From the NCBI GenBank assembly GCA_041687695.1, contig JAWLBL010000005.1, positions 68,382 to 132,381 of the forward strand: a stretch of 64,000 nucleotides of DNA, read 5' to 3'. Shown here one piece after another: positions 1 through 13,084 of this stretch; positions within the stretch are counted from its first letter, which is position 1; each line of letters opens with the position of its first letter. The stretch comes from Myxococcota bacterium (GTDB taxonomy: Bacteria > Myxococcota_A > UBA9042 > PHBI01 > JAWLBL01). The notes below the pieces were generated by a model, which had not been told where the DNA came from, ran no database searches, and saw only the letters and a list, made by a program, of their open reading frames with translations. The translations under genes were made by a program, and so were the position numbers.

Positions 1-999
1 CGACGAACGCTCGAAAAGCGCTACCCGCCCGAGCGGGCGCAGGCGATGGTCGAGGACATGCTGGTCGCGGGGATGCGGCACTTCGGCGATCAATACGTCG
101 CGGTCAACGCCGACCGGCTCGATCGGGTGCTCGCGCTGCGCGCGGCGCTCGAGGATCAGTACCACATCGTGCTGAAGTCCGGGCGAGGCAAGGGACGGAC
201 CATCGGTGTGACGGCGGCTCAGCGCAAGGCGAACCTGATGGACATCGAGCGCTTGTACGCCGAGCTCGATGAGACGTTCGACGCCCTGGGGCGGCCGACC
301 GAGGGACTGGACCTGGCGACCTCCAAGGGCGACCTGGCGAGACGCTTCAAGGCGAGCATCGAGCGGCACCTGCCGGGCCAGCGTCCGCACAGGACTCGCA
401 GCGTCCGACGCGACATGCGGGTCGAAGCTGGCCAGAAGGTTTCGCGCTTCAAGCGGCACGGCTTCAAGCGGGTCGAGCCCGGCGTCTACGCGCTGACGTT
501 CAAAGACGGCACGTCCGTGCGTTACGAGGTCGTCGAGGGCCGCTATCGGCTGCAGACCTTCGACCCAAACGGGCAGCTCGTCCTCGAGTTCGGAGAATAT
601 GACACGCTCGTGTCGCCGTACCGCAACCGCCCCAAGACCTCCAGCATCATGAACGCCCATCACGGCCTGCAGAACGACTTGATGAAGCTCGCCTTCGAGG
701 ACTACGGGTATGACGGCGGCGCGGTGCCCACGATGTGGCTTCGGGATGGCCGGGCGGGGTCGCCGCACGGCATGATCACCGCCATGCAGAACAGCACCCA
801 TGCGGCGCGGACCAAGCTGAAGACTCCGACCTACTCCCAGATTCGCGACTGGGGCATTCAGGACATGCGCACCGCGGGGGTGCCGACCGCAGCCATCCAC
901 GAGTACCTGGCGCACATGGACGCCTATTTCCGGCGCGCCGTAGTGCCCAACCTCGAGCGCTCGGGCGAGCTGCGGCGCCTGGGCACCTGGGAGCCATGA
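1..999 (+). CDS. C-terminal part of a polymorphic toxin with an HNH/EndoVII (Tox-SHH-like) nuclease domain; 5'-truncated by the window edge
   Basis: Frame is open from base 1. The C-terminal ~130 aa read G-E-Y...NAHHGLQ...Y...VPTMWL...SPHGMITAMQ, matching the [SA]HHxxQ...P.i.L...PH pattern of Tox-SHH-type nucleases. The stop overlaps the start of a SUKH immunity gene (ATGA, 996-999). Confidence 0.72.
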   Translation, partial: RRTLEKRYPPERAQAMVEDMLVAGMRHFGDQYVAVNADRLDRVLALRAALEDQYHIVLKSGRGKGRTIGVTAAQRKANLMDIERLYAELDETFDALGRPTEGLDLATSKGDLARRFKASIERHLPGQRPHRTRSVRRDMRVEAGQKVSRFKRHGFKRVEPGVYALTFKDGTSVRYEVVEGRYRLQTFDPNGQLVLEFGEYDTLVSPYRNRPKTSSIMNAHHGLQNDLMKLAFEDYGYDGGAVPTMWLRDGRAGSPHGMITAMQNSTHAARTKLKTPTYSQIRDWGIQDMRTAGVPTAAIHEYLAHMDAYFRRAVVPNLERSGELRRLGTWEP

Positions 1000-1898
1000 T
1001 GTCATTCGACCGCCTCGACAAGCTCCTCGACGCGCTCGACGTCGACGCCGAGCCGGCGCCCAGGCCCAGCGACGACGAGATCGCCCGCGCCCGATCGGCC
1101 GGTCCGGTCCCGATGCCGCCCGAGCTCGAGCACGTCTATCGCCGCGCCTACGAGGTCTATCTGCCCCAGGGCGCGTCCATCTTCGGGCTGTTGGACTATG
1201 TCGACGTCAACCGGCAGCAGCACCTGTTCGAACGGCTGCCCGGGGTCGCGTTCTTCGGGTCGGACGGCAGCGACGGCTTCTTTTTCATCGACGTCGGCGG
1301 CGCGCTCGGCCACAGCCCGGGCGCCGTGTTCTGGGTGTCGCGTGGGAACCTCCAGCCCGACGCCTGTGTGCCGTGCGGGTGGCACCTTGTGGACTTTCTG
1401 GCCAAGGTGGTCGCCGGCGAGGTGCCGTGGGACGGGCCCTCGCTGATGAAGACGTCCGTCCAGCGTATGACGGCAGCGCTCGACGCGCGTCCAGACGGGT
1501 GGGACGCGATGCCCCCGGTGGCGCCCGAGAAGATCGACCAGCACGCATGGGCGACGATGACGCCGATTACGCCGGTGACGGAGAAGCTCTTGTTGCGCGG
1601 CGAGCGGATCCGCTTCGTGGCGAGCGGGGTCGTGATCGGCGGGCTGGAGGCCATCACCCCCGTCGCAGGGACCGCGGACGCAGACGGCATTCCGAGCGCG
1701 GTGTGGGTGGGCTCCGGCCCCGACGGGACGCGCTATGCGGTGACCGCGGGCGGCTGGCGAGACCTGCCGCGCGACCGGCTGATCGCGGTGCCGCCGGGTG
1801 GCACGGCCGAGACCGGGCGCGTCATGGGCCTGTTCTCGGACGTCGTGACGGCCTGGGTCGAGGGGCGCACGCCGCCGGGAGGGACGAGCCGTGGGTGA
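996..1898 (+). CDS. SMI1/KNR4 (SUKH) family immunity protein, two tandem domains (300 aa)
   Basis: ATG at 996 overlaps the toxin stop. N-domain: PSDDEIARA...PMPPELEHVYR...FFGSDGSDGFFFID...VFWV...LVDFL, the typical SUKH pattern. The second half repeats the layout in degenerate form. Confidence 0.75.
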   Translation: MMSFDRLDKLLDALDVDAEPAPRPSDDEIARARSAGPVPMPPELEHVYRRAYEVYLPQGASIFGLLDYVDVNRQQHLFERLPGVAFFGSDGSDGFFFIDVGGALGHSPGAVFWVSRGNLQPDACVPCGWHLVDFLAKVVAGEVPWDGPSLMKTSVQRMTAALDARPDGWDAMPPVAPEKIDQHAWATMTPITPVTEKLLLRGERIRFVASGVVIGGLEAITPVAGTADADGIPSAVWVGSGPDGTRYAVTAGGWRDLPRDRLIAVPPGGTAETGRVMGLFSDVVTAWVEGRTPPGGTSRG

Positions 1899-2433
1899 AA
1901 AGTTCGGTCATCGCCACAGCTATGTGCGTTACGCGAGCACCGAGGGTGGGCTCGACCTGACGGTCCCGTCGGCCGTCCTGTCGGACGGCGGGCTGCTGTT
2001 CATCCCGCTGTACGCGGTCAGCGCGATGACGCTCGGCGAGAGCTACAGCGTCCCGCCCCTCAGGGGCTCGGGCGAGAGCCTGGCCAACGTCAGCGAGGAC
2101 ACTGTCACGCTCAGCGCCCTGCTGGTCGGCGCCGAGCGCTTCGCGTGGAAGTTGGCCCTCGAGATGGCCGCCGAGTCGGCCGTGCGCGGCAGCGCCGTCG
2201 CGAGCTACAGCGGCGGCAAGATCACGGGGCTGTTCCTGGTGACGTCCATGACCATCCGGAGCGACATGTTCATCCGCTCGCTCACCTTCTCGGTGAACAA
2301 CCAGAGGCGCCAGGCGATCGAGGTCTCGATGACCCTCGTCCACCAGCCCAGACCCGGCGCGCTCGCCCCCCTGCTCGATCTCGCCAGCGTCGCCCTGTCG
2401 ACCCTGGCCAGCGGCATCGCCTACGGCGCTTGA
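1891..2433 (+). CDS. Putative tail-tube initiator / Dit-like baseplate protein
   Basis: DTVTLSALL...LFLVTSMTIRSDMFIRSLTFS...AIEVSMTLVH resembles Dit-like phage tail proteins. Located upstream of the hub/spike and baseplate genes. Confidence 0.5.
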   Translation: MGEKFGHRHSYVRYASTEGGLDLTVPSAVLSDGGLLFIPLYAVSAMTLGESYSVPPLRGSGESLANVSEDTVTLSALLVGAERFAWKLALEMAAESAVRGSAVASYSGGKITGLFLVTSMTIRSDMFIRSLTFSVNNQRRQAIEVSMTLVHQPRPGALAPLLDLASVALSTLASGIAYGA

Positions 2434-2441
2434 GGCTCGAT

Positions 2442-3041
2442 TTGGCACCCACTCCCTTCTCCCAGGTCGACCTCTTGGTGGCCCCCTCGCCGATGGCCGC
2501 CGCGCTCGCGGCCACGGGACCGAGCGAGCTCGCCCGCCTACGGCACTCGATCGCGCGCGGCCTGCCCAGCGTCATCCCCCTCGACAACGAGCTGCAGCTC
2601 GTCTTGACGCTGCCCACGGGGCAGGTGCGGCCTTGGCTGGCGCTGAGCGTCGACCAGGTGGTGAGCCGCTCGGCCGAGGAGAGTGCGCCCCACCCCGCGA
2701 GTGCGGCGTCGCCCCCCCAGGAGGTCGTCGCGCGACCGCCGCTGTCGTTGGTCCTGGTTCGGCGCAACCGGCCGGTCGCGGCCGCGCCGCTGGTCCTCGG
2801 TAGCCGACGCCTGCTGCCGAACTCGGGCGGCGCGCCGGCCGTCATCGAGCTGCTGGTGCTGGGGTGGGAGGTGCGCGCTGGCAGCCTGCGAGGGCCCGGG
2901 GACGTCGGGTCATGGATCGAGCTGGCCTGGCGCCGCGTCGATCGGGGGACGTCGACCTTCGCTCCGCCGCCGATCCCCGTTGGGGTCGCCCAGCGCGTGG
3001 CCGCCGCCCTGGCCGCGGAAGGCGCAGGGGACAGCCCGTGA
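2442..3041 (+). CDS. Hypothetical protein in tail operon (baseplate-plug position)
   Basis: TTG start after GAGG at 2432-2435. Its stop overlaps the next GTG (GTGA, 3038-3041). No family recognised; the call is positional only. Confidence 0.45.
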   Translation: MAPTPFSQVDLLVAPSPMAAALAATGPSELARLRHSIARGLPSVIPLDNELQLVLTLPTGQVRPWLALSVDQVVSRSAEESAPHPASAASPPQEVVARPPLSLVLVRRNRPVAAAPLVLGSRRLLPNSGGAPAVIELLVLGWEVRAGSLRGPGDVGSWIELAWRRVDRGTSTFAPPPIPVGVAQRVAAALAAEGAGDSP

Positions 3042-5017
3042 CCGGTGCGCCCGAGACCCGCTACGGCAACGATCCGGGCTGGCACCTTGCGCTGAGCAGG
3101 GGAAGCCAGGATGTCCTCGCGATCGGCTGCGAGCAGTACCACGCCACCATCGAGGCCAGCCTGCCGCACGGGCTCGCCGGCGGCAGCTACGTGTTCACCA
3201 TCGAGGGACTCACGAACGAGGACTACCAGCTCCTCGCCGGCGCCTTCGAGCCGACCGAAGTGCTCGAGGCCCGCCTGTACCTGTACTGGCGCGACGTGAA
3301 CTCGGGCGTCTTGGGTTACCTGGCCAACATCGGCGGCTTTTCGGGTGCGAGCCCTTCCCTGACCGGCGAGGCGGCCGACGACCACCTGGTGGCGGTGCTG
3401 GCGGTGACCGAGGTGACGCGGGTCGCCAAGCCGCTGCGCTACGACGCCGTCGTGCGGGCGAGAGAGCTCGTCTACCATCGGCTGGCGACCCACCGGACGG
3501 CCGAGGGGATCGCCGCCGACTCGCCCCTGGAGGCCGCCAAGGAGCTGGCGATCGCGGCCGGGCTCTCCATCGACCAGGTCGAGGTTTTTCCACCCGAGGG
3601 CGGGGACCCCGACGCGGGCCAGACCCACGGGGAGCGGGAGCAGTTGCCGGTCAGACAGTCCACCGTGCAGGTGCTCCATCGCCTCGGAGAGCGCATGGCG
3701 GCCCAATATGCCCGCTGGGGCCGGGGGATGTACCGGATTCGGCGCGGCATTTTGGAGATGGGGCCGAGGCGACCCATCCCGACGATGGACTTCGAGGTCA
3801 CGGACCTGTCGGCGACCGACGGCGTGCTGAACGTGGCGGCGCGAGGGTGGGTCGCGCGGGACCCGTCCCGCACCGACGCGGTCGAGGCCGGGCAGGAGGG
3901 CGCGGCGCGGCGCAGGTGGGAGCTGACGCTGCGTGGCCACCCGGGGTTGGGGCCGGGAGACGTGGTCTCGTTCGTCCCGCCGCTGGGCGAGCAGCCGCCT
4001 GGCTCGCCGCCCTGGTACGCGCCCGGCGTGCTGGGGTTGCTGGCCCCGGGCCAGAGCGCCGAGCAGCCGGCAGCCATCCTGGGGTACGTCGAGGGCGTGA
4101 CCCACAGCGTCGGGCGCGGGCGCCCGTTCGTGACGCGGCTCGCTTGCGTCGAGGTCACACGCGACGACGTGTGGGACGAGCGCGGCCAGGCGCACGCGGA
4201 CGACCCGGAGCAGGAAGACGCCGTCGAAGGCAGCCCCACGGTCGTCGGCGAGCTGGCGCGCGCGGTGCGGCGCTCGGGCGCGGAGACCTTCGCCAGCCGC
4301 CATCAGGCCGAGATTGGCGAGGTGCGCGCGACCCACGGCGCCGGTGGCGAGGGGGTGCCAGGCCAGACGTCCGACTATCTGCGTGGCGTGCAAACCGACG
4401 GGGGACCCAGGCAGGCGCGGCGGGCGAAGGTCGAGCGCGTGGTGCCCGACCGACAGGACCGGGTCCCGTACGTGACCCCGTTCGCGCTGGGCCCCTTCGG
4501 GCTGGTCCTACCCCGATACCCGGGCACGCGCACGCTGCTCGTGCACCGGCAGGGGCTCGCCGAGGATCCGATCGACATCGGCGCGCTGTGGCCCACCGAG
4601 GGCAGCGACCAAGCCGGGCCCAATACGGCCAAGCCGGGGGATTGGTGGCTATCGCTGCCGGCCAAACCCGAGCCCGTCGCGGAGCTCGAGCCGCGAGACG
4701 ACGCCGACGCGGTGCAGCTCGAGTTCGAGTTCGCCAGCAACGACCTCATCGACGCGCAGGGCCGGCGATACATCGATACGGCCGAGCTGGTCATTCGCGT
4801 TGGGACCGAGAACCTCGCTCGGCCCGGCGAGCGTCCGACCGCTGAACCCGGCGTCGCGGTGCTGATCGAGCACATCGACAAGAGCTCCCGAATCGAGATG
4901 AGGACCGATGGCACCATCGCCATAGAGGCGGCGAGCGACCTCATCCTTCAGGCCGGAGGCCACGTGAAGGTCAAGGTGGGCAAGGGCAAGACGTTCGACG
5001 TGGAGGAGAGCGCGTGA
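3038..5017 (+). CDS. VgrG-like fused baseplate hub (gpD/gp27-like) and spike (gp5/gpV OB-fold + beta-repeat) protein
   Basis: Hub-like WELTLRGHPGLGPGDVV...YVEGVTHS; OB-fold-like VPYVTPFALGPFGLVLPRYPGTRTLL...IGALW; C-terminal beta-repeat SRIEMRTDGTIAIEAASDLILQAGGHVKV. Confidence 0.7.
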   Translation: MTGAPETRYGNDPGWHLALSRGSQDVLAIGCEQYHATIEASLPHGLAGGSYVFTIEGLTNEDYQLLAGAFEPTEVLEARLYLYWRDVNSGVLGYLANIGGFSGASPSLTGEAADDHLVAVLAVTEVTRVAKPLRYDAVVRARELVYHRLATHRTAEGIAADSPLEAAKELAIAAGLSIDQVEVFPPEGGDPDAGQTHGEREQLPVRQSTVQVLHRLGERMAAQYARWGRGMYRIRRGILEMGPRRPIPTMDFEVTDLSATDGVLNVAARGWVARDPSRTDAVEAGQEGAARRRWELTLRGHPGLGPGDVVSFVPPLGEQPPGSPPWYAPGVLGLLAPGQSAEQPAAILGYVEGVTHSVGRGRPFVTRLACVEVTRDDVWDERGQAHADDPEQEDAVEGSPTVVGELARAVRRSGAETFASRHQAEIGEVRATHGAGGEGVPGQTSDYLRGVQTDGGPRQARRAKVERVVPDRQDRVPYVTPFALGPFGLVLPRYPGTRTLLVHRQGLAEDPIDIGALWPTEGSDQAGPNTAKPGDWWLSLPAKPEPVAELEPRDDADAVQLEFEFASNDLIDAQGRRYIDTAELVIRVGTENLARPGERPTAEPGVAVLIEHIDKSSRIEMRTDGTIAIEAASDLILQAGGHVKVKVGKGKTFDVEESA

Positions 5018-5466
5018 TGACCAACGACGACACCGATCGCAGGCGGCGCTTGCTCGGCTGGGGCGTGGCCTCGGCCGAGATCGCGCCCGGCGCGGCCCTG
5101 GCCCGGGACGTCGTCCTGGTCGCCGGGCCCGGCGGTCTGGACTTCGCCCGGGTCGAGGGGCTCGACGCGCTGGCCCAGGACCTGACGGTGGCGATGACGA
5201 CGGCGCGCGGGTCGGACCCGTTCAACACGACCTTCGGCTTCGACGGGCTGAACGCGCTGACGGACGACACGCCGCCGGGCCTGGTGGGCGAGCGCCTCCG
5301 CTTGGCCGTCATGGCGTTGCTGCAGCGCGACGCGCGCGTGCGGCGCATCCTGGACGTGACGGTGGGCCGCTCGCGAGGGCGGACGCTCGACGTCACGGTC
5401 CGCTTCGAGGCGCTCGGTGGAGATCAGGTCGAGATCGGCCTGGGGACGGTGGGGATCGATGGCTGA
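5014..5466 (+). CDS. gp25/GPW-like baseplate wedge (sheath initiator) protein
   Basis: VEGLDALAQDLTVAMTTARGSDPFNTTFGFD...LLQRDARVRRILDV is the gp25/DUF2634 pattern. 150 aa, between the spike and J genes. Confidence 0.8.
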   Translation: MMTNDDTDRRRRLLGWGVASAEIAPGAALARDVVLVAGPGGLDFARVEGLDALAQDLTVAMTTARGSDPFNTTFGFDGLNALTDDTPPGLVGERLRLAVMALLQRDARVRRILDVTVGRSRGRTLDVTVRFEALGGDQVEIGLGTVGIDG

Positions 5467-6916
5467 CACGACGACGACGATCGATCTGGCGGAGATTCTG
5501 GCGGTCGACCGCGAGCAGGCCCGCAAGACGGGCGCGGACCGCTTCGGGGTGACCGAGGGTGGCTTCGCCGCCAAGCCCTTCGGGCAGCTGCTGGCCGAGA
5601 AGGTCGCGCTGGCCCAGGAGGTCTTCGGGGCCGACCTGGACCTGACGGCGGGCTCGGTCATCCGAAAGATCCTCGAGTTGACGGCCCTCGAGGACGCGCG
5701 CACCTGGGCCGCCCTGTCGAGCATGTATGACAGCCAGTTCGTCGCGACGGCCACGGGCGACGCGCTGAGCCGGCTGGGCGAGGAGCTGGGCTTTTCGCGG
5801 CCGTTTCAGCGGGCGGGCGGGCGGATCGAGCTGACCCTGGTCGGGCCCCTGGCGGACCCGCAAGGATCGGTGCGCATCCCGCGCGGCGCAAGGCTGCTCA
5901 CGGCGGGCGGGCACCACGTCGCGACCGAAGAGAGCGTGGTACTGTCGGCGGCGCGCAAGCAGGCCCGCGTCGGGGTGAAGGCCTTCTACCCGGGGCCCGA
6001 ACACAACCTGGACCCCAGCCAGCCGGGCCAGGCCATCGTACGCTGGAACGAACTCGACCAAGCGCTGTCGGGGCTGCTCGCCGCCAGGGACGCCGCCTCC
6101 GCGGCCTCGGGCCAGGCGATGGAGCTCGAGCAGGTGGTCAGCGTCAAGCACACGACGGCCCTGACCGGCGGCGAGCAGCTGTGGCCCGACGTGCGCTACC
6201 GCGAGCTGCTGTTGCGGGCGCCGCGGTCGGTGTGGACGGTCGAGGCCATCGAGATCGCGCTGTCGCGGGTGCCCGGCGTGCGGCAGGTGCAGGTGCGCGA
6301 TGCCTGGGGTGGGCTCGACCTGTACCAGTCGCTGTTCGGCAACTTCAACTTCATCGAGCGGCTGTTCGGGGCCGAGCGCGACGTCGGCTCGCCCTACTAC
6401 TTCACAGTGCTGATCGCGCCGACGCCCGAGGCGATCTGGGGCGGGCCGGACGGGCTGCGGGCGGCGGTCGAGGCCGCCATGGAGGACCTGCGACCCGTCG
6501 GCATCTTCCCCCAGGTGGTGCAGGCCGAGGAGGTCGGCATCGGCGTGGCGGCCGAGCTGGTGGTCAGGGGGCTGCCGCTGCCGTCGGGCAGCCGCGCCGT
6601 GGTCAACGGGTCGCAGGCGGCGGGGGCGCTGAAGGCGCGCCTGCTCGAGCGGGTGCGGCGCTACGTGGACGGGCTGCGTTTCGGCGAGCCGGTGCGGGCC
6701 TCGGAGGTGACCTGGGCGCTGATGAACGAGCCGGGCATCGCGGACGCCACGGGCCTCGAGCTGGTGCGCTACCCGCCCGCTTTCGACGCGCTGGATTTGG
6801 GGGCGGCGGTGCCGTCCGGGCAGCTCGAGCGTCTGGGATGCGGCAAGAACGCAAACCTGCAGGGCAATCAGATCGCCGTGCTGATCGACGACCCCGAGCT
6901 GCTGGTGATCACGTGA
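5459..6916 (+). CDS. Baseplate J/gp47-like protein
   Basis: FGVTEGGFAAK...DLTAGSVI...SQFVATATGDALSRLGEELGFSR...IPRG...TGGE...YRELLL...TVEAIEIALSRVPGVRQVQV...YVDGLRFGEPV; ATG at 5459. Confidence 0.85.
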   Translation: MADTTTTIDLAEILAVDREQARKTGADRFGVTEGGFAAKPFGQLLAEKVALAQEVFGADLDLTAGSVIRKILELTALEDARTWAALSSMYDSQFVATATGDALSRLGEELGFSRPFQRAGGRIELTLVGPLADPQGSVRIPRGARLLTAGGHHVATEESVVLSAARKQARVGVKAFYPGPEHNLDPSQPGQAIVRWNELDQALSGLLAARDAASAASGQAMELEQVVSVKHTTALTGGEQLWPDVRYRELLLRAPRSVWTVEAIEIALSRVPGVRQVQVRDAWGGLDLYQSLFGNFNFIERLFGAERDVGSPYYFTVLIAPTPEAIWGGPDGLRAAVEAAMEDLRPVGIFPQVVQAEEVGIGVAAELVVRGLPLPSGSRAVVNGSQAAGALKARLLERVRRYVDGLRFGEPVRASEVTWALMNEPGIADATGLELVRYPPAFDALDLGAAVPSGQLERLGCGKNANLQGNQIAVLIDDPELLVIT

Positions 6917-9237
6917 GCGACGCGACCGGAGCGCTGGACGCCGACGGGCTGCGGGCGGCCTCACACCTGAACATGCGACGGCACCTGGCCACGCCGCTGG
7001 CCGCTGGCGCCGTGGACGAGGAGGTGGCGGTGGACGCCGCCGGCCGGGCGCGTGTCACCTGGAGTCCGCGCGAGCCGCTGCTCCTGCTCGGCCTGCGCCT
7101 GGATCTGGGGGACGAGACGCTGCGGGTCGAGGCGACGCTCGATCCGGACGGCGACCCGCGACCGCTGACGCCGCTTCGCTTCGACGCCTACTCGGAGCGC
7201 GGCTCGTTTCTGCCGCTGCACACCCCCGAGGTCGACGGCGGCACGGGGCGAGCGGCGCCGTTCGAGGTGACGCTGACCGTCCACGGGCCGGATGGCGTGG
7301 CCCTGAGCGCGGCCGAGGTGGCCGAGACCGTCGAGGTGCGCCTGGTCGAAGGACAGATGGGGCGGCTGCTGTACGTCCTGGGGGCCGAGAAGCAGCGCAT
7401 CCGGCGGGTCGCGCGCGAGATCGCCGCCATGCGCCGCGTCGAGACGGCGCGCGACGAGGCGCTCGATCGGATTGGGCGCGAGCTGGGCGTCGGCCGCTTC
7501 GCCGAGCGGCTGACGTGGCGGCCCGCGGGCGAGGGCGTCAGCGGCGAGCTGGTCACCGAGACGGCCCGCGAGGACGACGCCGCGTATCGGCGACGGCTGG
7601 CGCTCTACAGGCCGCTGCTGATGCCGACCCGAGCCAACGCGCTGAGGCTGCTCAACGGCGACGGCGCGGCGCCGGGGCCGCTGCAGCGCATGGGGCTGGC
7701 GCACGCGGTGGGGCTGGCCGAGGCGGACCACCCCTTCGCGCTGGCCGTGCACCTGGTGGGGGCGGCGCCGGGCGGAGCGGCGGCCAAGGCGTTCCGCACG
7801 CGGTTCCTTGCCCACCTGCGGGACACGCGGCTGGTCGATCCGACGGTGGCCGTCCCCGAGCACCGGCGGCTGCCATCGACGCAGCGGGCACGCGAGGATG
7901 CCCTGCGCGAGCGGCTCCGGGCCGGGCTGACCTTCGAGAGCGCCAGCCGGGCCATGGCCCCGGCGTTGGCGGCCGCGCTGGACCGCGTCGTCGCCTGTCG
8001 CGCCGCCCTCGGCCTGGCCGACCCGCTGCAGGTCCGGCGCGCCCAGCGCGACGACGGCGGCAGCCGCTACCAGCTGGGGCTGGGGGTCGACCTGAGGCGA
8101 CCGCAGCCTGCGAAGCTCGCGGCGATGGCGCAGCGCGCGCTCGCCGGGCAGCTGGAGGCGGCGACCCCGCCCGAGGTGCGCGCGCTCGTCGCGTCGATGA
8201 AGCCCGCGCCGGCCGACGAGGACCCGGTGGGGCGCTGGCTACTCGAGCCCTGCGGGCTGCGCACGGTGCACCGGCTGGACGGCGCCTGGACCTATGCCTC
8301 GCACCTGTACTCGGCCGGGCTGCGCATCTCCGGACCCGACGCGGCCAAGCCGGACGAGCCGCTGGAGCTGCACGCGCACTGGGCCGCCGACGGGGACTCC
8401 GAGCACAACGTGGTCCTGGCCAGCGCCCTGGCGGGCGCGGTCGACGGTTGGACGGACGAGCCCTGGACCGTGCTGGTCGGCGCCGCCGAGCGGGCCGCCT
8501 GGTCGGCGACGATCGCGGCCGACGCGCCGACGACGACCGCCTTCCGCGCCGCCGGGCTGCCGGTGGTCTCCGACGTGCCGCGCCTGCGCGCCGCCTTGGA
8601 GCGCTTCCCGGGCGAGCTGGTCGCGACGATTCAGCTCGGGCCCGCCCTGGCGAGCGCGCTCCACGCGGGAGCGCTCGACGCGGCCGAGACCTTGGAAGGG
8701 TTGGCGGCGCGCCTGACGGCCGGCGGGGTCGCCTCGCTGGTGCCCCTGACCACCGCCGACGGGCGCGCCCTGGTCGTGCTCGGGGCCGTGGCGCTCCCGC
8801 AGGTCGGGACCAACCGGGCCAGCCGGCGCGCCGCGGGGTTCCGCTGGTATCAGGTGCCGCTGCACGGCCCGGGCGGCCAGGTCCGCGAGGTCGGCAGCCG
8901 CACGGTCTTCACCGCGGCGGGCCCCGGTCTGACCGCCCTGGTGGCGGTGGGCTACGCGCGGGTGGGCGGCACCGATCCCTACGAGATCCGCCCCGAGCTG
9001 CCCCCCGGGGCCACCCTGGATCTGGCGCAGTACGAGTACCTGATGAACGCGCTCGATCACCTGCACCCGATGGGGGTCGAGGTGAACACCTGGACGCTGC
9101 GGCAGGCGCACGTCGACCTCACCGGCGACGGGGTGGCGACGCCGCTGCCGCCCGACGTGGCTCGCACCTATCGCCCGTTTCGACGGCCTCGCCACGTCGG
9201 CGACCCGTCGGTCCCGCTCGAGCCCGACCCCAGCTGA
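6913..9237 (+). CDS. Large baseplate wedge/tail protein I-like protein (774 aa)
   Basis: VETARDEALDRIGRELGVGR...EDDAAYRRRL and C-terminal LDHLHPMGVEV are gpI/DUF2612-like motifs. GTGA-coupled to the J gene. Confidence 0.6.
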   Translation: MSDATGALDADGLRAASHLNMRRHLATPLAAGAVDEEVAVDAAGRARVTWSPREPLLLLGLRLDLGDETLRVEATLDPDGDPRPLTPLRFDAYSERGSFLPLHTPEVDGGTGRAAPFEVTLTVHGPDGVALSAAEVAETVEVRLVEGQMGRLLYVLGAEKQRIRRVAREIAAMRRVETARDEALDRIGRELGVGRFAERLTWRPAGEGVSGELVTETAREDDAAYRRRLALYRPLLMPTRANALRLLNGDGAAPGPLQRMGLAHAVGLAEADHPFALAVHLVGAAPGGAAAKAFRTRFLAHLRDTRLVDPTVAVPEHRRLPSTQRAREDALRERLRAGLTFESASRAMAPALAAALDRVVACRAALGLADPLQVRRAQRDDGGSRYQLGLGVDLRRPQPAKLAAMAQRALAGQLEAATPPEVRALVASMKPAPADEDPVGRWLLEPCGLRTVHRLDGAWTYASHLYSAGLRISGPDAAKPDEPLELHAHWAADGDSEHNVVLASALAGAVDGWTDEPWTVLVGAAERAAWSATIAADAPTTTAFRAAGLPVVSDVPRLRAALERFPGELVATIQLGPALASALHAGALDAAETLEGLAARLTAGGVASLVPLTTADGRALVVLGAVALPQVGTNRASRRAAGFRWYQVPLHGPGGQVREVGSRTVFTAAGPGLTALVAVGYARVGGTDPYEIRPELPPGATLDLAQYEYLMNALDHLHPMGVEVNTWTLRQAHVDLTGDGVATPLPPDVARTYRPFRRPRHVGDPSVPLEPDPS

Positions 9238-9248
9238 GAGAGGCCCCG

Positions 9249-10628
9249 ATGCCCACCGAAGATTTCCTGTCGAGCCTGCTCGATGAAGAGCTGACCAAGT
9301 CGATCCAGGTCATCGACAAGCTCGAGGTGACCCAGACGGCCAAGCAGCAGCTCCTGGGGCTCCTCATCCTGGACAAGCTGGGGCAGACCAAGCGGGTGTT
9401 CGCCTATGGCGAGCCGTTCGCCGCGGCCGAGCCGGCCTGCGCGCCCGAGTTCCAGCGCAGCTTCGAGCACGTCGACTGGGTCGACGGCGAGAGCGTGGTG
9501 CAGGCGGAGCAGACGCCCGGCGAGCTGGGCTTCAACCAGCGCTTCCACCGCATCGAGGACGACCTGGACGGCCTCGGCAAGGACGTGGCCAAGGCCTTCG
9601 CGTGCCTGGCCAGCCTGCGGCAGGAGGTGGCTGCGCGGCTCGAGGACCTCAGCCGAGCGCTGAACCTGGTCCACGGCGACATCCACCAGTGTTGCCACGC
9701 GAGCGCGCAGCCCGCGAGCGGCGGCACGGCCCAGGTCCTGCCGGCGCAGGGGTGGGGAGCGCTGAACCCGGCGCTCATCGCGGCGGCCGCAGGGTGGCAG
9801 ACCGGCGCGCCCGCCGGGCCGGCGCCCGCGCCCATCTTCCTGATGCCCGGCCAGCTCGCCTACGCGGGCGGCCAGCCCTGGATGTGGATGACCGGCCCCG
9901 GCGCCGGACCGCCCACTACCAGCGACCCGGCGCCCGTCGATCCGACGAAGCTGGCCCCGGGGGCCCGCGCGGCGGTCGGCGGGTTCGAGGCCACCTACGT
10001 GGGCGTCGAGGCGATGGCCGGCCGCTGGATGCACGTCTTCGCGAGCGACTTCGGGTTGCTGCTCAAGGCGGTCGAGGGCGAGGCGCCCACGGGCGAGGTC
10101 CGCTATCGGGACGCCGCGCTCGAGGACGTGGCGGCGGTGGCGAGGTGGGCCGCGAGCAACGAGCGTTTGGTCGCGCGCGCCTTCCCGGACGGCGGGGTGA
10201 CGGCCGAGGGCCTGCTCGCGCGCTTCGGCGACGCCGACGTGGGCGGCGGCCGCACCCTGGCCGAGGCCATGGCGGGCGTCCCGGCGGCGACGCGCTTCGA
10301 GGACGCCGGGGCCATCGGCGCGGAGGTCGCCGCCATCAAGGGCCAGGCGTTGCGCGCGAGCGGGCGCCGGTCGGCGGCGTTGGTCGGCGCGCTGGGGATG
10401 GAGGCGGCCGGAGCGCGTGCCGGGGCGTTGCCGCTGGGCCGCTTCGCGTGGATGCCCGACGAGGCGCGGCAGGTGCTGACGAAGGCCGGGCTGGGGACGA
10501 TCGCTGCGCTGGCGTCGGCGCCGACCAAGCAGCTGCTGGCGACGCTGAAGGCGGCCGGGGTCACGGCGGCCGCGGACGAGGTCGAGGCCTGGAAGGCGGT
10601 CGCGGGCGCGATCGGACAGGGCCAGTGA
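9249..10628 (+). CDS. Hypothetical tail-associated protein (fibre position): coiled-coil N-terminus, Pro/Ala linker, C-terminal HhH/DUF4332-like segment
   Basis: ATG at 9249 after GAGAGAGG. DWVDGESVVQAE...GFNQRFHRIEDDL is followed by heptads. The C-terminus reads VLTKAGLGTIAALASA...EVEAWKAVA. Confidence 0.5.
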   Translation: MPTEDFLSSLLDEELTKSIQVIDKLEVTQTAKQQLLGLLILDKLGQTKRVFAYGEPFAAAEPACAPEFQRSFEHVDWVDGESVVQAEQTPGELGFNQRFHRIEDDLDGLGKDVAKAFACLASLRQEVAARLEDLSRALNLVHGDIHQCCHASAQPASGGTAQVLPAQGWGALNPALIAAAAGWQTGAPAGPAPAPIFLMPGQLAYAGGQPWMWMTGPGAGPPTTSDPAPVDPTKLAPGARAAVGGFEATYVGVEAMAGRWMHVFASDFGLLLKAVEGEAPTGEVRYRDAALEDVAAVARWAASNERLVARAFPDGGVTAEGLLARFGDADVGGGRTLAEAMAGVPAATRFEDAGAIGAEVAAIKGQALRASGRRSAALVGALGMEAAGARAGALPLGRFAWMPDEARQVLTKAGLGTIAALASAPTKQLLATLKAAGVTAAADEVEAWKAVAGAIGQGQ

Positions 10629-10629
10629 C

Positions 10630-10983
10630 GTGGCGCCGCGGGCGGTAGCCTGTGAGGGGGACGTCGCCGCGGTGGTCGGGGCGACGCCGCTGACGCCGGC
10701 CAAGTCGGGGACGTGGACGGCCGACCCGGTGCGCCACGGCCGCTACGAGCACGTGCGGGTCGGCGGGACGCCCGTCGTGGTCGAGGCGCGCTGCGTCTTC
10801 CGCTTCTCGGGGGCGGACGCGGACGGCAAGGCGGTCGTCGGCGATGAAGAGGTCGTGCTGACGGCCGGGGCGACCGTGTGGATGGGTAGTGCCGAGGGCG
10901 TGCTGGCGCACGGGGACGCCGCGGCGAGCCCGCACGGCAACCGGCTGGAGGTGGTGAGCGCGCGGCCGGCGCGGACGGGCTGA
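10630..10983 (+). CDS. PAAR-like spike-tip protein (117 aa)
   Basis: Small beta-rich protein with AVACEGD...VRVGGTPVV...C.F...VLAHGD...HGN, the repeated V.vgG.PV/.GD pattern of PAAR-like folds. Last gene of the tail operon. Confidence 0.55.
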   Translation: MAPRAVACEGDVAAVVGATPLTPAKSGTWTADPVRHGRYEHVRVGGTPVVVEARCVFRFSGADADGKAVVGDEEVVLTAGATVWMGSAEGVLAHGDAAASPHGNRLEVVSARPARTG

Positions 10984-10999: not shown

Positions 11000-13084
11000 T
11001 CACAAGCCGAGGGTGAGGCCGGCCCAGGAGGCGTCGGGGTCGGGGGCGCCGTGGGCGAAGGTGGCGAAGGGGCTGAGGAACAGGCCCAGGCGCGCGGACA
11101 GGAGGAGGTCGAGGCGCAGGGTGGCGTCGGCCTGCAGGTGGGGGCCGGGCGGACGCCAGGTGGGCAGCAGGGTGGCGTCCAGGCGCAGGCGGTGGGCGCC
11201 GGTGAGCGGCAGGACCAGCTCGAGGCGGGGGCCGAGCGCGGCGTGGAGCCAGTCGTCCGGGCCGAGGTAGGAGGCGAGGCGCAGCTCGAGGCCGGCGGCG
11301 AGGAGGCCGCGGAAGTCGTCGCGCTCGGCCAGGGTCAGGTGGGCGCGGGCGCGGAGGTCGAGGCCGAAGAGGAGGCCGGCGGCCGGGAGGGTGGCGCCGC
11401 CGAGGGAGAAGCCGAGGCCGAGGTGGCGGGCGAGCCAGGCGTCGGTGGGGCGGCCCTGCAGGCCGAAGCGGTCGTGGGCGAGGAAGACGAAGCGGGAGCC
11501 CTCGAAGACGGGGCGGTCGCCGTCCCAGCGGACGCGGGTCTCGCTGACCAGGCCCTGGTGGCGGGCGTGGGCGCCGAGGCCGGCGGCGCGGCGCTCGGTG
11601 GTGTCCTCGTCGAGGACGGCGTGGCGCAGGGCCAGGCGCGGGTGGCCGGCCGGGGTGACGCCGGCGCGGACGGCGGCGCGGCGGGAGCCGCTGGGGAGCA
11701 GCTCGGGCTCGGGGAGCGGGGCGACGCGGGCGGTGGGGCGGATGGGGAGGGTCGCGCGGAGGTCGAGGGCGGCGTCCATGGCGACGGTGGAGGTGGCCTC
11801 GTCGAGGTCGGGGCCGGCGCGGAGGGCCTCGTTCTCTGCGTCGATGACGGCGTCGGCGTACTCGGCGAGGGCGGCGCGGGTCGGCGGGGGCAGGGAGGCC
11901 GAGGCGAGGGCGTCGCGGAGGGCGCCGAGGGCGGCGGCGCGGGCGGGCTCGGGGGCGGCGCGGCTGCCGTGGGCGGCGGCGAAGCCGGGGACGGCGGCGA
12001 GGCGGGGGGCGAGGCGGTCGCGGGTGCGTTCGGCCTGCCGGGACAGGGTGCGGCGCGAGGGGACCATGCCGCGCAGGCGCAGGCGGACGTGCTCGAGGAG
12101 ATCGCTGACCACCTCGTGCGGGTGGACGAGGAAGCGGGCCTGGCGGGGCAGCTCGGGGGCGACGGCGCGGACGGCGTCCCAGGTGAGGCGGGCGCAGTTG
12201 ACCGACAGGAAGCGGTAGGGGACCGACATGCCGCCGTGGCGCTGGGCGAAGAGCTGGGCCAGGAAGTCGCGGCGCTCGGCGGGGGTGAGGACGAGGTCGT
12301 AGACGATGAGGTCGCGCTGCTCGCCGATGGCGTAGCGCAGGACCATCTCGTGGTGCTGGCTCTCGATGACGGTGGCGTCGACCTGGCCGGTCAGGCCGCG
12401 CCAGACGGCGTCCTCGGCGGCGCCGGGGCGGTCGAGGTCGACGGCGTAGGAGTAGACGGGCTCGAAGGACTGGCCGGTGACGAAGGCGTCGCCCTTGTGG
12501 CGGATGCGCAGGAAGAGGTGGCCGAAGGAGGAGGCCGGGTGGGCCCAGGAGGGGGTGGCGAAGAGGAGCTCGACGCCGTCGACGCGGTCGAGCTGGGCCC
12601 AGGCGTCGAAGGCCGGGCAGCCGCCGGTGTCGAGGGCGAGGGGGCCGGGGACGAGGTCGCGGGCGGCGAGGAAGCGGGCGCGGAGCGGGAAGCGGCAGGA
12701 GAAGTCGGGTTCGGTGAAGGCGCGGGCGAGGGAGGCGCGGAGGTCGGCGGCGGGGTCGGCGCGGCCGGCGCGGGTGGGGTAGCGGCCGGGGGCGGCGTCG
12801 AGGGCGGGGGCGGCCGGGAGGGGGGAGTCGGTGGGGGGTTCCCAGCCCATGATGGCGAGCCAGGCGGGGTCGCGGCTGAGGTGGTGGCGGGCGTCGAGGC
12901 GGGCGGCGAGGGCGAGGAGGAGGGCGAGCTCGCGGGTGCGCGGGGGGCCGTCGGGGAGGGGCGGGAGGGGGTGGGCGACGGCGCGGAGGGGGGCGGGGAG
13001 GCGGCGCGGGGGGGCGGCGGCGGCCGGGGCGGCGGCGAGGAGGGCGAGCAGGGCCGCGAGGGCGGCGAGGAGGACGGGGGGCAT
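11000..13084 (-). CDS. DUF4105 (Lnb N-terminal-like) domain protein with signal peptide and probable C-terminal beta-barrel
   Basis: PASSFGHLFLRI and YRFLSVNCA are the His/Cys motifs of DUF4105; CRFPLRARFL upstream. Alternating beta-strands at the C-terminus. Confidence 0.75.
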   Translation of the reverse strand: MPPVLLAALAALLALLAAAPAAAAPPRRLPAPLRAVAHPLPPLPDGPPRTRELALLLALAARLDARHHLSRDPAWLAIMGWEPPTDSPLPAAPALDAAPGRYPTRAGRADPAADLRASLARAFTEPDFSCRFPLRARFLAARDLVPGPLALDTGGCPAFDAWAQLDRVDGVELLFATPSWAHPASSFGHLFLRIRHKGDAFVTGQSFEPVYSYAVDLDRPGAAEDAVWRGLTGQVDATVIESQHHEMVLRYAIGEQRDLIVYDLVLTPAERRDFLAQLFAQRHGGMSVPYRFLSVNCARLTWDAVRAVAPELPRQARFLVHPHEVVSDLLEHVRLRLRGMVPSRRTLSRQAERTRDRLAPRLAAVPGFAAAHGSRAAPEPARAAALGALRDALASASLPPPTRAALAEYADAVIDAENEALRAGPDLDEATSTVAMDAALDLRATLPIRPTARVAPLPEPELLPSGSRRAAVRAGVTPAGHPRLALRHAVLDEDTTERRAAGLGAHARHQGLVSETRVRWDGDRPVFEGSRFVFLAHDRFGLQGRPTDAWLARHLGLGFSLGGATLPAAGLLFGLDLRARAHLTLAERDDFRGLLAAGLELRLASYLGPDDWLHAALGPRLELVLPLTGAHRLRLDATLLPTWRPPGPHLQADATLRLDLLLSARLGLFLSPFATFAHGAPDPDASWAGLTLGL

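Follow-up and report, generated by a model that had tools for sequence, protein, structure and literature searches.

What kind of contractile machine carries a nuclease toxin and its immunity protein among its own structural genes, and how would such a toxin be loaded? The question is raised by a row of ten genes at the start of a 64,000-nucleotide (nt) stretch (the window, G000:C5:68382-132381) in the genome of a Myxococcota bacterium (G000; 7.97 Mb, 73% GC, rated 99.27% complete), which the original prediction had read as a domesticated contractile tail with a toxin-immunity pair built into its operon. The ten genes (F to O) proved to be the 3′ part of a cassette of 15 genes (A to O) and 17.1 kb, whose operon starts 6.1 kb upstream of the window, with A, B, C, D, E and the start of F outside it (Table 1). 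This is very probably a conserved, non-phage contractile injection cassette outside the families tested, and apparently an undescribed minimal lineage of contractile injection systems (CISs) with a two-part, carrier-plus-toxin loading. The system is known here from its genes alone, from which we infer the particle, its target and its route out of the cell.

By homology or fold, the cassette encodes a sheath (B), a tube (C), a Dit-like protein (H), a hub-spike (J), wedge proteins (K and L, with M as a further candidate) and a nuclease tip on F, i.e., sheath, tube, hub-spike, gp25 and J lie in one operon without head genes, which is what broadly marks a CIS. The proposed domestication was borne out by the sheath and tube genes upstream, by the absence of phage homologs and by a cassette with no capsid, terminase or lysis genes; inspection of the called open reading frames (ORFs) in the 20 kb before the window revealed no head genes. 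The ATGA/GTGA overlaps described for the ten co-oriented genes (at 996, 3038, 5014 and 6913) are all present, together with a further one (TTGA at 2430, I on H), and so are the short gaps (11 nt between M and N, 1 nt between N and O), the convergent gene ending 16 nt past O and the host-like composition (GC 0.67-0.77, and 0.88-0.96 at third codon positions).

Homologs of B match PF04984/PF10758 or are named ‘phage tail sheath gpL-like’. The model of J (predicted local distance difference test, pLDDT, 78.9) was matched by Foldseek to 7aef (E 2.5e-20), 7b5h, 9qgm and 9gtr, the best fold matches being the spikes of AlgoCIS, tCIS, PVC and CIS-Sc and the VgrG of type VI secretion systems (T6SS) (E 2.5e-20 to 1e-15); judged by this model, J is a fused hub-spike that folds like the VgrG of T6SS and of extracellular contractile injection systems (eCISs). 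The labels first given to H (Dit-like), J (VgrG-like), K (gp25-like) and L (baseplate J) stood, the last two as parts of the baseplate wedge, and the myophage-like order held too, except that hub and spike are fused as in eCIS and T6SS and not separate as in myophages. For M, called gpI-like, the baseplate matches were weak (E 0.04-0.07); in L112, L113, L114 and L116 it is ~300 amino acids (aa) longer, with an insert near residue 480. N, called a fibre, has the position of one and is a weak candidate, a faint profile match to the short tail fibre of phiTE (E 0.0064) accompanying its conserved N-terminal motif and coiled coil, and the helix-hairpin-helix region at its C-terminus matching HHH_5 in one homolog (E 8.2e-5). 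Searched against solved structures, profiles of the sheath, the tube, H, A and E yielded no useful match, and no solved sheath was hit by the sheath profile.

The spike tip appears to come in two forms. A Cys-rich gene of ~110 aa sits between J and K in 57 of 67 loci, and among the 10 loci without it an O homolog was found in seven and none in one, with two left unexamined; the two genes were never met together. O has no Pfam match and is weakly related to the Cys-rich family (hhalign P 6.4e-5, probability 64%), which lends weak support to the PAAR-like label it had been given. Because O mostly replaces the Cys-rich gene and the families are weakly related, O is probably a PAAR-like spike tip alternative to it. 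At the other border, A gave a confident model (pLDDT 91) with a long beta-hairpin, for which Foldseek returned no match in PDB or BFVD and no tail terminator; VIA-align detected a restriction-endonuclease-like core (NucS, Z 8.6, root-mean-square deviation 3.1 over 104 of 313 residues), which is a lead only, because the tool calls this level of match common. A could fill the role of a Pvc16-type terminator, although fold searches gave no terminator.

The cassette is widespread. Among 8,000 candidates scored, 651 were relatives of the sheath, the best 120 (query excluded) being 57-73% identical and, where named, almost all ‘hypothetical protein’; a sheath profile found 193 matches among 1.84 billion cluster representatives. 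In GTDB, 153 of 200 candidate stretches were confirmed, and the 80 kept as the locus set (28 from Micromonospora) span at least nine phyla, judged by their record titles. Homologs of B and C occur in all 80 loci, of A in 75, of H, I and J in 72, of E in 68, of K in 67, of L in 65, of D in 64, of F in five and of G in four, most misses of core genes being due to contigs that are short and to the 10-kb flank; M is present in each of the 30 genomes searched for it, and in 30 of 30 regions the gene after M is N. The search for the same gene order in other genomes, which had been proposed as a check, thus succeeded: the core order is conserved and near-identical across phyla (I is shifted behind K in L034), and the cargo slot is polymorphic. 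The borders, at A and N, are sharp and conserved, and of the 654 ORFs upstream A alone is conserved (79 of 80 loci); the cluster that comes second across taxa is a response regulator in 11. A close copy exists in only one of 60 relatives of G000, and the cassette is therefore patchy. The same gene set is found in monoderm and diderm hosts, and cultured, non-pathogenic carriers include Micromonospora, Myxococcus (sp. RHSTA-1-4, without E and F), Nostoc, Paraburkholderia sacchari and Sinorhizobium (sp. 6-70).

The non-phage nature of the cassette was examined through its relatives and its flanks. No relative of the sheath was found in IMG/VR (0 of 99 candidates) or among 50,697 phage records, and tblastn with D found no match in phages. 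In 150 flanking proteins (106 upstream of 38 loci, 44 downstream in 22 regions), no terminase, portal, capsid or integrase was detected at E<=1e-15; two of them are endolysin-like (not conserved), one is a transposase and one an ATPase on the opposite strand. A myophage prophage was rejected on these grounds. T6SS of types i-iii was also rejected, in line with the distinction drawn originally, there being no VipB match in G000 and none of the T6SS markers (TssB/C sheath, TssJLM, ClpV) in the operon; TssJLM and ClpV were not searched genome-wide.

The cargo slot, between tube and Dit, was followed in 72 loci with a script of our own for calling its genes. It holds D, then nearly always a large protein and then often a protein of 330-630 aa. 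None of 30 large slot proteins matches a Pfam family; they have in common an N-terminal domain of ~135 aa (E_N), with a D-like motif at its start, and almost every one contains a hydrophobic stretch (851-885 in E). An Atlas search with E returned unnamed clusters only. E also carries a perfect 9-nt tandem repeat (L002:6280-6385) coding for (GEG)n within the acidic linker that joins its variable part to its conserved one. In 29 of the 43 non-redundant loci, counting the window, the large protein is of the E type and an F-type gene comes after it. The F-type proteins share a helical N-terminus of ~140 aa (F_N), which leave-one-out tests without the near relatives, with columns taken from the full alignment, regained in 27 of 29 cases (iE, the E-value of the individual domain hit, 6.9e-27 for the F_N of the window). 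Neither E_N nor F_N matches a Pfam family, and the only matches of F_N among solved structures were helical bundles made by design and proteins unrelated to it.

The nuclease-toxin label of F was upheld by its Tox-SHH tip (E 1.1e-6 to 1.3e-6, above cut-off), with AHHG and GSPH histidines invariant in five homologs. The toxin does lie in the structural operon, as claimed; it makes up the latter half of a module of carrier and toxin, and the gene of the carrier (1,045 aa) is found outside the window. Tox-SHH tips occur in the window, L030, L066, L068 and L080; others are Ntox4 (L018, L020), Endonuclea_NS_2 (L042), WHH (L088) and a weak Tox-REase-2 (L048). Most of 51 slot proteins scanned match no family, and a group of 31 shares an E..GTD..DxK motif of the kind typical of restriction-endonuclease folds. 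That tips swap between loci, another proposed check, was confirmed in a quick tree of the sheaths (L080 and 31 redundant loci excluded): tips differ between sister sheaths (L088 versus L053/L058; L067 versus L019), and two sheath clades contain the SHH tip.

The relation of the two proteins was addressed by complex prediction. E(421-1045) with F(1-150) scored 0.62, versus 0.00 for the best of three controls, using alignments of our own; among solved complexes 116 of 157 attained the mark set for this score, among mismatched pairs 2 of 215. The runs agree in >=70% of contacts, with a partner pLDDT of 71-74, and place the interface between E ~908-1012 and F 5-145. Neither the E nor the F_N chain has a natural solved relative. 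Binding of F_N to the C-terminus of E is supported by this prediction. The same tips are also found on single-chain proteins of 1,140-1,590 aa without F_N, and a docking-region profile made from the 29 loci with split genes had no match at E<1e-4 in the 14 loci that lack a separate F gene (best 7e-4). The idea that slot proteins of 1,300-1,590 aa are plain fusions of E and F was discarded, because they have E_N and in some cases the tip in common with them but neither F_N nor the docking region. In L029, D is present without E or F. A sister cassette on a linear plasmid of Streptomyces canus (L121:18452-35798) has the same core, a 62-aa D, a longer sheath and LamG in M, and its 1,313-aa AHH-domain protein headed by E_N (iE 4.5e-9) is placed after the structural genes. 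Because of these two loci, E is regarded as cargo rather than as an obligatory ruler. No orphan E_N or F_N genes were found in G000.

The gene behind the toxin, G, probably consists of two SUKH-like halves, the second judged by eye. It comes straight after the SHH toxin in each of the five complete SHH loci (the window and four others), and at the window locus the layout is that of a polymorphic toxin with its immunity, i.e., constant N-terminus, variable tip and adjacent immunity gene. As far as the accessible parts of the sources go, polymorphic toxin systems likewise combine a constant N-terminus with variable nuclease tips and list Tox-SHH with Imm-SUKH (PMC3482391), and toxin-immunity pairs are known at some eCIS loci (PMC8213781). 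Unlike those polymorphic toxins, E_N and F_N lie outside Pfam, and the table in PMC3482391, in the part available, lists Tox-SHH with the type II, V, VI and VII secretion systems and not with PVC. From the sequences, both the toxicity of F and its neutralisation by G are putative.

Table 1. The 15 genes of the cassette. C5 and L002 coordinates are those of the contig and of the extracted locus; all others are window positions.
Gene	Coordinates	Strand	Length (aa)	Basis and remarks
A, non-classical constant gene	C5:62238-63179 (= L002:2239-3180)		313	Upstream of window
B, sheath	C5:63222-64391		389	Upstream of window; phrog_23 E 1.1e-6
C, tube	C5:64416-64835		139	Upstream of window; position and weak Hcp match (E 0.095)
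D, tape-measure-like mini-protein	C5:64843-65136		97	Upstream of window; weak similarity to tape-measure C-terminus
E, carrier	C5:65158-68295		1,045	Upstream of window; E_N domain, no Pfam family
F, 3′ part: ~140-aa helical docking domain F_N (predicted) and Tox-SHH tip	..999	+	361	Length is that of the whole protein; starts 86 nt before window (C5:68295)
G, SUKH-like candidate immunity protein	996-1898	+		SMI1_KNR4 E 0.045, under cut-off
H, Dit-like tube initiator	1891-2433	+		Atlas Dit_like PF21821 cluster, score 0.95, 204/256 features
I, conserved, between Dit and hub	2430-3041	+		No family match in profile searches
J, fused hub-spike (VgrG/Afp8-like)	3038-5017	+		Fold match of model by Foldseek
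K, gp25-like wedge / sheath initiator	5014-5466	+		phrog_120 E 4.7e-8, phrog_43 E 1.9e-5
L, baseplate J	5459-6916	+		PF04865 E 1e-6; phrog_6 E 2.7e-36
M, large wedge protein, gpI/Afp12 position	6913-9237	+		Weak PHROG baseplate matches (E 0.037, 0.073)
N, fibre position	9249-10628	+		N-terminal motif, coiled coil, C-terminal helix-hairpin-helix region
O, probable PAAR-like spike tip	10630-10983	+		Weak hhalign match to Cys-rich tip family

How does the cassette compare with known systems? With canonical eCISs (Afp, PVC, AlgoCIS, tCIS, CIS-Sc) it shares sheath, tube, fused hub-spike, gp25, J, a PAAR-like tip and the lack of a head, and both the fused VgrG/Afp8 spike and Afp11/J by which those are recognized are present. 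It differs in its one tube gene, its Dit-like initiator and its cargo split into carrier and docked toxin. The originally claimed distinction from Afp/PVC eCISs is further supported by the lack of an AAA ATPase: none of the 15 genes matches an ATPase family and no conserved extra gene lies on either side. DUF4157 was not detected in the cassette either, nor was DUF4255; for this terminator the picture is less clear, Pvc16_N (DUF4255) having no match at the cassette while A could take its place. R-type tailocins (R pyocin, diffocin) have a sheath of ~390 aa, a tube of ~140 aa, no ATPase and a myophage-like order. The compact sheath and tube, the missing ATPase and the order liken the cassette to them; it departs from them in its fused VgrG-like spike, its polymorphic nuclease cargo and its lack of a conserved lysis cassette (the two endolysin-like flanking proteins apart), and neither a long tape measure nor a classical fibre was detected in it. 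In a survey such as eCIStem, which according to the accessible text required at least 10 core genes found by Pfam or Afp profiles (PMC8213781), the genes of the cassette would mostly fail.

In the literature accessible in part, the nearest described systems are the Tme-type CIS and the Sle1/Sle2 systems, both dependent on DUF4157. In the Tme-type CIS of Streptomyces davawensis, a Tme endonuclease is associated with release of extracellular DNA (eDNA), and Tme-like genes are defined by DUF4157 (PMC11126660, in the portion available). Like the cassette, these systems spread across phyla and, in that same portion, carry their largest gene, which encodes transmembrane helices and a nuclease, immediately upstream of the baseplate genes; the Cys-rich tip gene is also matched by its counterpart in a Tme-type cluster (iE 7e-10). 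DUF4157 has no Pfam match in E or in 30 slot proteins, and none of the 18 matches in G000 lies inside the cassette. One listed member of the Tme group, on a plasmid of Mycobacterium JS623 (identity confirmed by the title of its RefSeq record), encodes DUF4255, DUF4157 and an ATP-binding protein and keeps hub and gpV apart. Apart from the tip profile, none of the ten other family profiles matched this cluster (best iE 0.003), and the sheath profile does not match its sheath. Membership in the Tme type was rejected on the missing DUF4157 and the unmatched sheath, with JS623 as the one member compared. The Sle1/Sle2 proteins of actinobacterial SLP-type CISs, compared by description in the accessible part of PMC13277306, likewise form a two-protein effector module with variable C-termini, immunity only sometimes and a tape-measure-related helical protein with a hydrophobic hairpin. 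There, unlike here, Sle2 is a DUF4157 adaptor and the tip sits on Sle1; in the cassette the large protein would be the carrier and the toxin its small docked partner. No description of the cassette was found in a literature search that left subscription papers mostly outside; the eCIStem/dbeCIS lists and bioRxiv supplements could hold such loci.

The favoured mechanism would run as follows. D, a shrunken tape-measure C-terminus, would seed the tube on the hub; the carrier E would enter the particle via E_N, the domain that stays on cargo genes moved out of the slot; and F, unfused to E, would dock on E ~908-1012 via its helical N-terminus. On contraction, the hydrophobic hairpin of E (851-885) would insert into the target membrane and the SHH nuclease would then reach the DNA of a competing bacterium, with G protecting the producer. 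The system would be single-use and lack its own ATPase and lysis genes. Delivery of the docked nuclease to competing bacteria is considered probable, with clearly less assurance than the existence of the cassette itself. The wider picture, in which these loci form a separate CIS branch of at least nine phyla, invisible to Pfam surveys and devoid of ATPase, Pvc16 terminator, full tape measure and lysis genes, where E_N mimics the tape-measure end and the C-terminus of E and F_N act as a plug and socket that swaps free-standing toxins, is put forward more tentatively still.

Several observations weigh against the favoured mechanism. The likeness of D to a tape-measure C-terminus is weak (6 of 47 members, best E 0.0018), as is that between D and E_N (P 4e-4, probability 35%). 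F_N failed its leave-one-out test in the two Ntox4 loci. E_N and F_N occur in one chain in L022; E and F may be the two parts of what was once a single fused protein, and such pairs tend to pass complex prediction. The analysis revealed no clear fibre for receptor binding, nor a clear terminator or exit route. G is SUKH-like and pairs with SHH, as its label implied, but both it and its homolog in L030 (SMI1_KNR4, E 5.9e-5) remain below the Pfam cut-off; the co-occurrence of SHH and G is not independent, because four of the five loci share one sheath clade. A candidate immunity gene is present in the slot of only 10-11 of 72 loci and absent from ~60, though many tips are nuclease-like. The pair of SHH toxin and SUKH-like gene is real for the window copy, and cognate immunity is an exception in the family, so that antibacterial delivery is a fair inference for this copy and not established for the family; the scarcity counts against a uniformly antibacterial family.

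The same scarcity, with the lack of lysis genes and of a clear fibre, is what speaks for the strongest rival, in which the same machine stays in the cytoplasm and is turned on its own cell (cell death, DNA release or development, as reported for Streptomyces CISs), immunity in the window copy merely tempering it. Precedents, as far as the sources are accessible, are the Tme endonuclease with its eDNA release (PMC11126660) and the intracellular SLP (PMC13277306). This rival is judged unlikely: a dedicated, translationally coupled SUKH-like gene follows every complete SHH toxin, the many unrelated tips suit an arms race, and eCIS toxins without immunity genes, antibacterial ones included, are also reported (PMC8213781, accessible text). 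Somewhat less likely again is a cell-anchored, contact-dependent, T6SS-like device without a true tape measure, with A, M or N taking the place of the membrane complex. It would account for the dispensable ruler of L029 and L121, for the missing terminator and lysis genes and for A having no counterpart among known tail proteins; against it, no transmembrane or lipoprotein anchor was identified (A, M and N were not systematically searched), there is no ClpV-like ATPase, and one gene set serves both monoderm and diderm hosts.

That the cassette is an auxiliary module in need of a canonical eCIS or T6SS elsewhere in the genome is very improbable. G000 does hold a canonical-looking eCIS (C17:91000-111000, L125) and its 18 DUF4157 matches are scattered, several in very long ORFs; a prophage-like tail region (C9:160000-176000, L126) and a baseplate fragment at a contig end (C1:1-4500, L127) were also seen. 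However, Pvc16_N occurs in only seven of 31 carrier genomes (many of them metagenome-assembled, with completeness not given for 30), so that most carriers would have no canonical eCIS to borrow from, and the cassette has its own sheath, tube and baseplate in a genome without a VipB match. Least credible of all, and already contradicted by the viral and flank searches, the sharp borders and the fused spike, is a prophage tail remnant or ordinary R-tailocin with a passenger toxin-immunity pair, for all its myophage-like order and PHROG matches of sheath and wedge.

The surroundings of the window copy and of its relatives were recorded as well. The convergent neighbour (window 11000-13084, minus strand) has an Lnb_N domain (E 4.6e-20) and looks like a host gene. 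On the other side, a protein of 1,225 aa that bears Ig-like repeats and whose N-terminus is signal-like (G000:C5:58436-62113; L001:10055-13729) stops 125 nt before A on the same strand, and it is not conserved beside other loci. Four near-identical short ORFs on the minus strand (G000:C5:35806-43717, HIT-like by eye) recur in a span of 8 kb that lies 20-27 kb upstream of the cassette and also contains defence-like genes. HAD-like and ATP-grasp genes are common to the downstream side of L102, L107 and L119, which have a short N, two of them also with a PhyH-like gene. Response regulators, sigma-54 activators and BTAD regulators recur beside L012, L015, L021, L022, L026, L032, L047, L056, L099 and L101; none of these adjoins the window copy.

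The preferred reading, a conserved cassette that delivers a nuclease docked on a carrier, touches two open questions, i.e., how CISs select and load their cargo and how diverse they are beyond the set defined by Afp and PVC. The lineage, with ~13 core genes and occurrence in cultured non-pathogenic strains, bears on whether a CIS needs an ATPase and a ruler, on the delivery of a docked rather than fused toxin, and on why many CIS nucleases have no neighbouring immunity gene. E_N and F_N provide two new marker domains that point to unannotated toxin tips, and a toxin clipped onto a carrier protein would, if true, be a new way of loading such syringes.

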